From assembly GCA_027490195.1 (NCBI GenBank), contig JAIXYN010000006.1, positions 6,930 through 70,929 on the forward strand: DNA of 64,000 nt, given 5' to 3'. The DNA is from Verrucomicrobiaceae bacterium (GTDB lineage: Bacteria > Verrucomicrobiota > Verrucomicrobiia > Verrucomicrobiales > Verrucomicrobiaceae). Below are positions 51,522 through 53,869 of this stretch, piece by piece. Numbering within the stretch: position 1 is the first letter of the stretch; the number at the start of each line of letters is the position of its first letter. Both the position numbers and the translations under genes were made by a program. The notes beneath the pieces were generated by a model, which did not search any database, was not told the DNA's origin, and saw nothing but the letters and a program-made list of their open reading frames with translations.

Positions 51522-51836
51522 TTAGCGCAGCGTGGATGGAATCGTTGGGCTGCTCGGGGCGGCGGGGCTTGGAGCAGGCGCGGGGGCCGGTGTCGGCGCG
51601 GCAGGTGCGGAAGGCTCAAGACTCATGGGCGCTGCGGGCTGTTCGGTACGGGCATTGTACTGATAGCGCATCTTCGGATTGCCTCGTGCTTTGCGTGGGG
51701 GCAGTCCCCAGCTCACATCGAAGGCATCCTGCTGGGACACCGTGGGATGACGGGAGTCAACATGCTCAAAGGAACCGCAGGAACTGAGAAGGGTCGCGGC
51801 AAGCAGAGCGGCAAAGATGAAGCGCAGAGATGTCAT
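51522..51836 (-). CDS. Small lipoprotein with Pro/Ala-rich tail, paralog A
   Basis: Lipobox LSSC; shares RHPTVSQQDA(F/Y)D.SWGL.PRK.RGNPKMR.QYN with paralog B. Confidence 0.8.
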   Translation of the reverse strand: MTSLRFIFAALLAATLLSSCGSFEHVDSRHPTVSQQDAFDVSWGLPPRKARGNPKMRYQYNARTEQPAAPMSLEPSAPAAPTPAPAPAPSPAAPSSPTIPSTLR

Positions 51837-52014: not shown

Positions 52015-52221
52015 TCATTGCACAGCGGCCTGCTCGGCCCTGGAATTGTATTGAAAGCGCATCTTCGGGTTGCCACGCACTTTGCGGGGTGCCAGTCCCC
52101 AGCTCAAATCATAGGCATCCTGCTGGGACACCGTGGGATGCCGGGCATCAGCAGGCTCAACACAGGAGCTGAGAAGTGTGGCGGCAAGTAAAGCGGCAAG
52201 GAGGAAGCTCAGAGATTTCAT
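52015..52221 (-). CDS. Small lipoprotein, paralog B (68 aa, lacks the Pro-rich tail)
   Basis: Start placed at MKSLSFLLAALLAATLLSSC by alignment to paralog A. Confidence 0.7.
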   Translation of the reverse strand: MKSLSFLLAALLAATLLSSCVEPADARHPTVSQQDAYDLSWGLAPRKVRGNPKMRFQYNSRAEQAAVQ

Positions 52222-52316
52222 GGTTGGCTGAATGGAATTCCTATCAATCCACGAACCAGGAGGTCTGGCTCTAGCTGGCAGGATCGCGGTCTTGGACGCC
52301 GCACCAGCCAATCCGT

Positions 52317-52673
52317 TCAGTTTCCACGCACAAGACGCACCGCCACATGGTCGGTATCAGGCAGGATGCGTTTCCGTAGGTCAATGCTGACCCCCACGGC
52401 CTGGAACTCCTCCATCACACAAGCCGCCATCTCGGCGGCGAGGGTTTCGATCAGCCTGCGCGGCCGCTCCGCCGCCAGTTCCTGAAGCCTCGCGGCCACT
52501 GCGGCGTAGTCGATTGTCGCAGAGATCTCATCGTTCATCGCCTCGAATCGACCAGCGATCCGCAGGGTGACATCAGCCTCCAGCACCTGGCTCGTAGCAC
52601 GTTCCTCCTCGGGAACGCCGATGTGCGTGGTCAGCCGCAGGGCGGAGATGCGTATTTCGTCGGGCGGTGACAT
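52317..52673 (-). CDS. folB: Dihydroneopterin aldolase
   Basis: HIGVPEEER...Q.LEADV, TIDYAAV, RLIETLA. Confidence 0.9.
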   Translation of the reverse strand: MSPPDEIRISALRLTTHIGVPEEERATSQVLEADVTLRIAGRFEAMNDEISATIDYAAVAARLQELAAERPRRLIETLAAEMAACVMEEFQAVGVSIDLRKRILPDTDHVAVRLVRGN

Positions 52674-52710
52674 TTGGGTTGCTGGGATAGGCGAAAGCTA
52701 TGGAAAGAAT

Positions 52711-52818
52711 AATGACGAAACCAGAATGACGAATCCCAAATGAATGACCAAACCGAAATGCAGCAATGTTTTGCTCATTGGAGCTTCATTCATCACTCTG
52801 AATTCTGGTTTCCTCATT
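52711..52818. repeat. Long imperfect AT-rich hairpin (AATGACGAA family) between the HAD-Nudix gene and folB
   Basis: Outer arms AATGACGAAACCAGAAT and ATTCTGGTTTCCTCATT (one mismatch); inner ATGAATGA / TCATTCAT. Confidence 0.75.
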
Positions 52819-53869
52819 CGGCGAAGCAGCCCTGCCGCATGCATTCATCGAGCAGGATTCGGGTGGGAATGTTCAAATCCATGCGCAGGGCCTCGGCCAG
52901 CGGCAGCCATTGAAAGGCCTGCGCCTCCTCGTTCAGCACCACCTGAGGCTCCACCTCGGCACAGCGTGCGATGTAGTTCAGCAGGAGAAAGTGCGCGGAA
53001 CGCTGAAACTCGGGTGGCTCAATGCAGTCCTGCACCATGACGAATTCGATGTCCTGCAGCGTGAGCCCGGTTTCCTCCAGGATCTCACGCACCAGCGCCG
53101 CCTCACATGTCTCGCCGCGTTTGATCTTGCCCCCAGGAATGCCCCAGCGGTGACTCCACTTGTGCGTGCGGATGAGCAGCATCTCGTCCTTGGAATTTAA
53201 AATGAGAGCGCCCACGGTGGACACTGGATACGCACCATCTCCCCCGCTCATGGGCCCCAGCAGAGCAGGCAGCCGTGAGAGATCCGGCACCAGCATGTCT
53301 GGCGCGGCGGTCATGAGTGTTTCGGCGCTCTCGTAACCCGTGCAGGTGGCGATGGTCACGACCCCGGCGGCATGGCCTGCCTCGATGTCATGTCGCATGT
53401 CGCCGATGAAGGCCGTCTCTGCGGCGGCCATGTCCAGCTCCGCCAGCAGCGCATGAATCTCCGTGCGTTTGTCGATGACGCCGCAGCGCATGATTTCAAA
53501 CGCATCCCGCACCCCCAGCGCCTCCGCCTGGGCCGCCACATGAATCAATGGCGCACTGCTAAGCACCACCAGCCGCCGCCCCGTGGCAGCAGCGAACTGG
53601 ATGAATTCCCGCGCATGGGGTAGTATCTCAATGTCGGCATGCGCATGCGTAAAATGCTCCAGGTAGAGCTGCTGCAGGCGCTCCAGCGGCAGGCCAGGTA
53701 GCACCTCCGCGAAAAATTCGGTGTACGGCAGGCGAAAGCGCGCCTTGAATTCTTCCCGCGTCATTTCCGCAGCGCCAGCGGCACGCAGCATGCCGTTCAC
53801 AGCACAGATCACGCCCGGCAGGTCATCCACCACCGTGCCGGACCAGTCGAACAAGAGATTCCGAATCAT
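52814..53869 (-). CDS. HAD-family phosphatase fused to a Nudix hydrolase
   Basis: HAD motifs FDWSGT, LSS, K, IGDMRHD; Nudix box GGKIKRGETCEAALVREILEETGL. Confidence 0.9.
   Translation of the reverse strand: MIRNLLFDWSGTVVDDLPGVICAVNGMLRAAGAAEMTREEFKARFRLPYTEFFAEVLPGLPLERLQQLYLEHFTHAHADIEILPHAREFIQFAAATGRRLVVLSSAPLIHVAAQAEALGVRDAFEIMRCGVIDKRTEIHALLAELDMAAAETAFIGDMRHDIEAGHAAGVVTIATCTGYESAETLMTAAPDMLVPDLSRLPALLGPMSGGDGAYPVSTVGALILNSKDEMLLIRTHKWSHRWGIPGGKIKRGETCEAALVREILEETGLTLQDIEFVMVQDCIEPPEFQRSAHFLLLNYIARCAEVEPQVVLNEEAQAFQWLPLAEALRMDLNIPTRILLDECMRQGCFAE

Follow-up and report, generated by a model that had tools for sequence, protein, structure and literature searches.

Can one protein encoded beside folB take the phosphates off dihydroneopterin triphosphate before dihydroneopterin aldolase (FolB) acts? 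In folate synthesis this removal takes two steps. The first, at the triphosphate, is a known Nudix reaction (PMC1971073). The second, at the monophosphate, has no gene assigned to it and is put down to a non-specific phosphatase (PMC1971073, PMC4161248, PMC9544542). The question is raised by a locus of a Verrucomicrobiaceae bacterium, contained in a window of 64,000 nucleotides (the whole stretch of DNA that was analysed). A sequence-only reading of this locus had proposed that a polypeptide combining a HAD and a Nudix domain, encoded next to folB, performs both dephosphorylations. We compared the domains of this protein with known families, followed the gene and its neighbors through related genomes, and weighed the proposal against four other explanations.

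A HAD-Nudix gene directly upstream of folB

The features of the locus, in window coordinates, are as follows.

52317..52673, minus strand: folB, dihydroneopterin aldolase, 118 aa, assigned by Pfam FolB
about 52458-52460, minus strand: codon of FolB residue 72, placed by the alignment of linked and unlinked FolBs
52674..52813, minus strand: spacer of 140 nt between the HAD-Nudix gene and folB
52709-52813, minus strand: palindromic REP/MITE-like element of about 105 nt, recognized by its core copies and hairpin
52814..53869, minus strand: HAD-Nudix fusion gene, an open reading frame of 351 aa with Pfam HAD_2 and NUDIX matches
52862..53221, minus strand: Nudix domain, residues 217-336
53063-53131, minus strand: Nudix box, residues 247-269
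53255..53869, minus strand: HAD domain of C1-cap type IA, residues 1-205
53834-53848, minus strand: HAD motif I, DWSGT (D8-W9-S10-G11-T12)

Both domains are readily recognized. Pfam HAD_2 covers residues 5-174 (E 6.5e-18; 65.9 bits against a cut-off of 23.8) and Pfam NUDIX covers residues 217-336 (E 2.7e-22; 79.6 bits against 21.1), and in the AF2 model of the 351-aa protein (pLDDT 85.9), residues 208-215 form a disordered linker between two folded domains. The HAD domain has its nucleophile, D8, in motif I; motif II is LSS (103-105; S104/S105), motif III is K134, and motif IV is GDMRHD (156-161), with the acidic pair D157/D161. Together with the Pfam score and the HAD fold of the model, these residues place the domain in the HAD superfamily. 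It departs from the canonical HAD phosphatase signature, DxD, at the Asp+2 position, which is occupied by S10. In the Nudix domain, the box is intact, G247-x5-E253-x7-R261-E262-I-L-E265-E266-T-G268-L269 against the consensus GX5EX7REUXEEXGU, and box, Pfam score and Nudix fold matches together identify a member of the Nudix hydrolase superfamily. Thus, the observations from which the sequence-only reading had started, a HAD domain whose DWSGT lacks the second Asp, an intact Nudix box, and a position just upstream of folB on the same strand, were all borne out by these matches and by the 140-nt spacer between the two minus-strand genes.

The AF2 model aligned to HAD structures with TM 0.74-0.82 on the target. 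The best Foldseek matches of the HAD domain, 2hsz, 3sd7, CbbY (4uau) and BT2127 (3qu4), are C1-cap type IA HAD proteins, and those nearest to the Nudix domain are NudI, MutT, Ndx1 and NUDX1-like enzymes. Sequence matches of the protein to solved structures were weak, and sequence and fold searches against solved structures pointed to a generic HAD type IA and a MutT/NudI-like Nudix enzyme, with no clue to the substrate. All HAD equivalog scores lay far under their cut-offs, those for phosphoglycolate phosphatase among them (TIGR01449, 57 against 180 bits; PRK13222, 61 against 225). The Nudix domain fell short of the NudB equivalog (NF006961; 28.4 bits against a cut-off of 103) and matched AtNUDX1 structures weakly (E about 8e-6; TM 0.74). 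Phosphonoacetaldehyde hydrolase (PhnX) has DWAGT as its motif I and so resembles this protein in carrying a small residue at Asp+2 within a similar motif. A PhnX-like reading of DWSGT was nevertheless rejected, with a score of 22.7 bits against 220 and no conserved Lys for a Schiff base among cap residues 15-85.

Coupling of the HAD and Nudix domains to FolB

The tie to folB, on which the proposal of a role in folate synthesis depended, proved strongly conserved. Among the best 80 of 549 relatives (one genome per species; Verrucomicrobiaceae and Akkermansiaceae, identity down to 50%), 75 loci have folB immediately downstream on the same strand, as an adjacent gene in 65 and as part of an in-frame HAD-Nudix-FolB fusion without a stop in the other 10, the window's closest relatives being among these 10. 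Two of the five loci without folB are contig ends, less than 200 nt from the gene, so that the linkage is present in 75 of the 78 informative loci, far beyond chance. The nearest relatives (88-94% identity; Prosthecobacter MAGs from several independent assemblies) encode HAD-Nudix-FolB as single proteins of 495-499 aa. No other folate gene shares this conserved link: across the 80 loci, no gene for FolK, FolP, FolE2 or FolD was found near the pair, except for one folD.

Two loci differ in their surroundings. The locus with folD (L077:35-778) has no folB downstream; its folD directly precedes the HAD-Nudix gene, and a gene for a class IV aminotransferase, possibly PabC, follows 2.5 kb downstream. 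In a locus from another class (L121:4395-5078), the HAD-Nudix gene comes first, then folB, and right after folB another HAD gene, this one with a canonical motif (DLDGV).

We further ran an exhaustive HMMER search over 1.84 billion representative proteins and sorted the best 149 clusters by architecture. These held 47 HAD-Nudix, 7 HAD-Nudix-FolB, 16 HAD-FolB and 3 Nudix-FolB fusions, along with 43 HAD and 32 Nudix domains on their own. DWSGT is near-universal in the HAD parts of these clusters, and one of the triple fusions is labelled Planctomycetota by its source. The HAD-FolB and Nudix-FolB fusions indicate that each domain was independently fused to FolB, a classical sign of a shared pathway.

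The genome itself, 6.98 Mb and 95% complete, supplies the pathway. Its folB, 140 nt downstream of the HAD-Nudix gene on the same strand and in a different frame, is the sole FolB match; the product scores well above the Pfam FolB cut-off (76.7 against 31.8 bits) and just under that of the TIGR00525 equivalog (66.8 against 72.15). FolE2 (GCYH-IB), FolK and FolP are present and encoded elsewhere, and no type-I FolE (GTP cyclohydrolase I) was found in this genome. The sole FolB, alongside FolE2, FolK and FolP, places the HAD-Nudix/folB pair in de novo folate synthesis. In this genome, only the two dephosphorylations that lead from the FolE2 product to the FolB substrate are without an assigned enzyme. 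The HAD and Nudix domains are, in short, coupled to FolB in a complete folate pathway.

These observations bear on a more mundane explanation. Public names for these proteins are 'NUDIX domain-containing protein', 'phosphoglycolate phosphatase' and 'dihydroneopterin aldolase', and the first two would suit generic house-cleaning, in which the Nudix domain sanitises nucleotides, the HAD domain is a phosphoglycolate or sugar phosphatase, and both merely share an operon with folB. The nearest Nudix folds, of NudI and MutT types, fit this as well. However, the linkage in all but three informative loci and the three kinds of FolB fusion in separate lineages argue against it, and no house-cleaning family reached its cut-off; we therefore consider this explanation very unlikely.

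The HAD domain as the constant partner of FolB

The two domains do not accompany FolB equally. In a wider sample of 401 genomes drawn from the phylum, with HAD counted at E <= 1e-15, the HAD domain occurs in 58 genomes (about 46 of them strong matches) and FolB in 367. FolB is present wherever the HAD match is strong, and three Akkermansia-like genomes are without both. Most FolB-bearing genomes are without this HAD, which marks it as a lineage-specific solution and not a universal one. FolB is fused or adjacent to HAD in 37 of 44 further loci examined, and the association of this HAD family with FolB, by fusion or adjacency, extends over more than 100 of the genomes examined, Akkermansia-like gut bacteria included.

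Within an Akkermansia-like genus with genomes of 2-3 Mb, 28 of the 31 sampled genomes encode a HAD-FolB fusion of about 330 aa that has no Nudix domain (for example, ORF L094:1501-2493). An ortholog of this Nudix domain was found nowhere in the HAD-FolB genomes, the Akkermansia-like ones included. Thus, it is the HAD domain by itself, and not the pair of domains, that constantly accompanies FolB; the Nudix domain is added in some lineages, and in the HAD-FolB genomes the Nudix step is either dispensable or done otherwise. We considered, and rejected, a pattern in which NudB is present in HAD-FolB genomes and missing from HAD-Nudix genomes: none of the 15 genomes tested reaches the NudB cut-off, and the genome types showed no clear complementarity.

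In three loci labelled with the window's own genus (L089-L091; genomes G354, G369 and G342), HAD and FolB are encoded by separate genes, folB coming second, and the Nudix domain is absent. Their HAD is 55% identical to that of the window, and both architectures therefore coexist within one genus. The most distant HAD with DWSGT, a standalone family (f8; L124 and L125) with 34-38% identity, adjoins a LOG/lysine-decarboxylase-like gene and is divergent from a gene for a fused homocysteine S-methyltransferase/MTHFR.

A repeat element and an apparently split fusion

In the nearest relatives, the counterpart of the 140-nt spacer is an in-frame coding linker, and all three domains are joined in one 498-aa protein. 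In the window, the FolB-frame sequence after ...MRQG reads GLLRRM..., resembling the linker ...RRGLLGGMTKD... of the fused relatives. The upstream reading frame differs from it by one base and stops at ...RQGCFAE*, and a TAG lies 8 codons ahead of the folB ATG. Read this way, the window's gene pair appears to be a split form of the triple fusion. Sequencing error was rejected as the cause of the split, which combines the frame change, the in-frame TAG and about 40 extra bases from a genome-wide repeat.

That repeat is the palindromic REP/MITE-like element. Its 23-nt core, TTCGTCATTCTGGTTTCGTCATT, has about 100 copies in the genome at no more than 2 mismatches, frequently paired in inverted orientation with 60-130 nt between them, and complete copies align at other sites. 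The arms, ...GAAACCAGAAT... and ...ATTCTGGTTTC..., form a hairpin of -42.8 kcal/mol (z -2.9). Fused relatives show remnants of the element motif in their coding linker, as does P. fluviatilis in its spacer, so that fission here and fusion there are both possible. A promoter and terminator scan of the locus gave nothing above shuffles. Directly downstream of folB lie two paralogous small lipoprotein-like ORFs in tandem (51522-51836 and 52015-52311, minus strand), with the leaders MKSLSFLLAALLAATLLSSC and MTSLRFIFAALLAATLLSSC; neither has a Pfam match.

A conserved HAD family without the Asp+2 acid/base

In HAD phosphatases, Asp+2 acts as the general acid/base in both half-reactions (PMC8069645). 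With Ser at this position, a plain phosphomonoesterase mechanism is not expected. DWSGT is invariant in 22 close homologs. Of 88 family members, 95% retain Ser at Asp+2 and the others have Ala or Cys; the substitution is thus not a local degeneration. Across the same 88 members, D8, W9, S10 (95%), G11, T12, D15, D16, F45, P48, F52 and Y53 are conserved, as are K134, G156, D157, H160 (93%), D161, G178 and Y179. The HAD catalytic residues other than Asp+2, like the Nudix glutamates, are invariant, and motif II is retained among close homologs. Candidates for the acid/base role would be H160 in motif IV, D15 or D16 just after motif I, or the substrate itself. The cap contributes the invariant aromatics F45, F52 and Y/F53, which would suit a planar pterin ring.

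A family-wide loss of the general acid/base residue might mean that the HAD domain is catalytically impaired and serves FolB as a substrate-binding or regulatory module. D8, K134, D157 and D161 are strictly conserved, however, motif II persists in close homologs, and H160 is kept in 93% of the 88 members, a pattern that argues for catalysis; we put little weight on an impaired domain. Given the FolB fusions and the conserved catalytic residues, a non-catalytic HAD and generic house-cleaning are each unlikely.

Alternatively, the HAD domain could act on phosphoanhydrides, either stripping the gamma and beta phosphates from dihydroneopterin triphosphate or hydrolysing the pyrophosphate released by the Nudix domain, with non-specific phosphatases removing the last phosphate. 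By the logic of HAD chemistry, good leaving groups would need no acid at Asp+2, which fits DWSGT, and the nearer relatives include PpaX and BT2127, both pyrophosphatases of the HAD family. Such an activity may also replace the Nudix domain in the HAD-FolB genomes, which are without it. Yet it would be redundant with the Nudix domain wherever the two are fused, and hydrolysis of the aspartyl phosphate would still require a base; BT2127 itself requires its Asp13. A pyrophosphatase role, moreover, leaves the Nudix-less FolB fusion unexplained. We consider a phosphoanhydride substrate unlikely, while allowing it a small chance.

The HAD-linked FolBs

FolB catalysis depends on E22, Y54, E74 and K100 (S. 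aureus numbering). In our alignment of 115 linked and 14 unlinked FolBs, the residues E24, Y56, E76 and K101 do not vary. Outside the active site residues, the two sets diverge. Residue 72 is Arg in 89% of HAD-linked FolBs and Phe in 12 of the 14 unlinked ones; the linked FolBs read RPR[RK]LIE and are without D40, A44 and P102, which all 14 unlinked FolBs of the same phylum carry. Pfam FolB E-values of the linked proteins run from 1e-15 to 1e-27, mostly 1e-17 to 1e-25, whereas HAD-less families of the same class typically reach 1e-27 to 1e-40. By these measures the HAD-linked FolBs are a divergent subgroup, and R72 could hint at a phosphorylated FolB substrate.

Such a substrate would reverse the order of the last two reactions: the linked FolB would cleave the monophosphate to hydroxymethyl-dihydropterin and glycolaldehyde phosphate, and the HAD domain would hydrolyse the latter. 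Besides the divergence of the linked FolBs, with R72 where the 14 unlinked proteins mostly have Phe, the best HAD family matches are consistent with this order, being phosphoglycolate phosphatases, whose substrate resembles glycolaldehyde phosphate. A dihydroneopterin monophosphate aldolase of a different fold is annotated in Pyrococcus (PMC5041015), and the HAD-FolB fusions are equally compatible with either order. Nevertheless, the phosphoglycolate phosphatase scores lie far below their cut-offs (57 against 180), the invariant aromatics of the cap would suit a pterin better than a two-carbon substrate, and the FolB catalytic residues are unaltered. The problem of the missing Asp+2 persists with glycolaldehyde phosphate. 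We therefore see only an outside chance that FolB acts first. If it did, this HAD family, having no Asp+2 acid/base, would represent a new mechanistic type among HAD enzymes.

A candidate bifunctional phosphohydrolase for the pterin branch

The explanation that we favor, and regard as probable, is that the HAD-Nudix protein is a bifunctional phosphohydrolase feeding FolB in the pterin branch of de novo folate synthesis. FolE2 (GTP cyclohydrolase IB), encoded elsewhere in the genome, would supply 7,8-dihydroneopterin triphosphate, and the Nudix domain would convert it to the monophosphate and pyrophosphate. The HAD domain would then hydrolyse the monophosphate to dihydroneopterin and phosphate by way of an aspartyl-phosphate at D8, while D157 and D161 bind Mg2+, and FolB, encoded immediately downstream, would cleave the resulting dihydroneopterin. 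We infer both substrates, dihydroneopterin triphosphate for the Nudix domain and the monophosphate for the HAD domain.

Each half of this scheme has known counterparts. FolQ (YlgG of Lactococcus lactis), NudB of E. coli and AtNUDT1 have the same Nudix fold and box, are likewise encoded with folate genes, and catalyse the reaction proposed here, from the triphosphate to the monophosphate and pyrophosphate (PMC1971073). Unlike those enzymes, this Nudix domain shares its polypeptide with a HAD domain and, in relatives, also with FolB, and it is missing from sister genomes that keep HAD-FolB. For the HAD domain, the proposed step is the one otherwise left to a non-specific phosphatase, the conversion of the monophosphate to dihydroneopterin, but the candidate here is a dedicated family coupled to FolB. 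With the HAD type IA C1-cap phosphatases (Gph, CbbY, BT2127, PpaX) it has the fold, cap, nucleophile and motifs II-IV in common; it differs from them in the Ser at Asp+2, the aromatic-rich cap and the conserved motif IV His. Multifunctional folate enzymes are familiar in the form of FolB-FolK and FolB-FolK-FolP, in which, as here, consecutive steps of the pterin branch are fused to FolB. The FolB partners in the present family are, by comparison, phosphohydrolases that lie upstream of FolB in the pathway.

A full-text search of the literature returned no paper on HAD-FolB, HAD-Nudix-FolB or a dedicated monophosphate phosphatase. Current annotation names obscure the connection of these proteins to FolB. 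The family comprises HAD phosphohydrolases with a non-canonical motif I and is a candidate for the folate step that has no assigned enzyme. How such a family works without the usual acid/base residue is a question that would interest enzymologists. For the monophosphate step, to which reviews published between 2007 and 2022 attach no gene, this HAD family offers a concrete protein to test.
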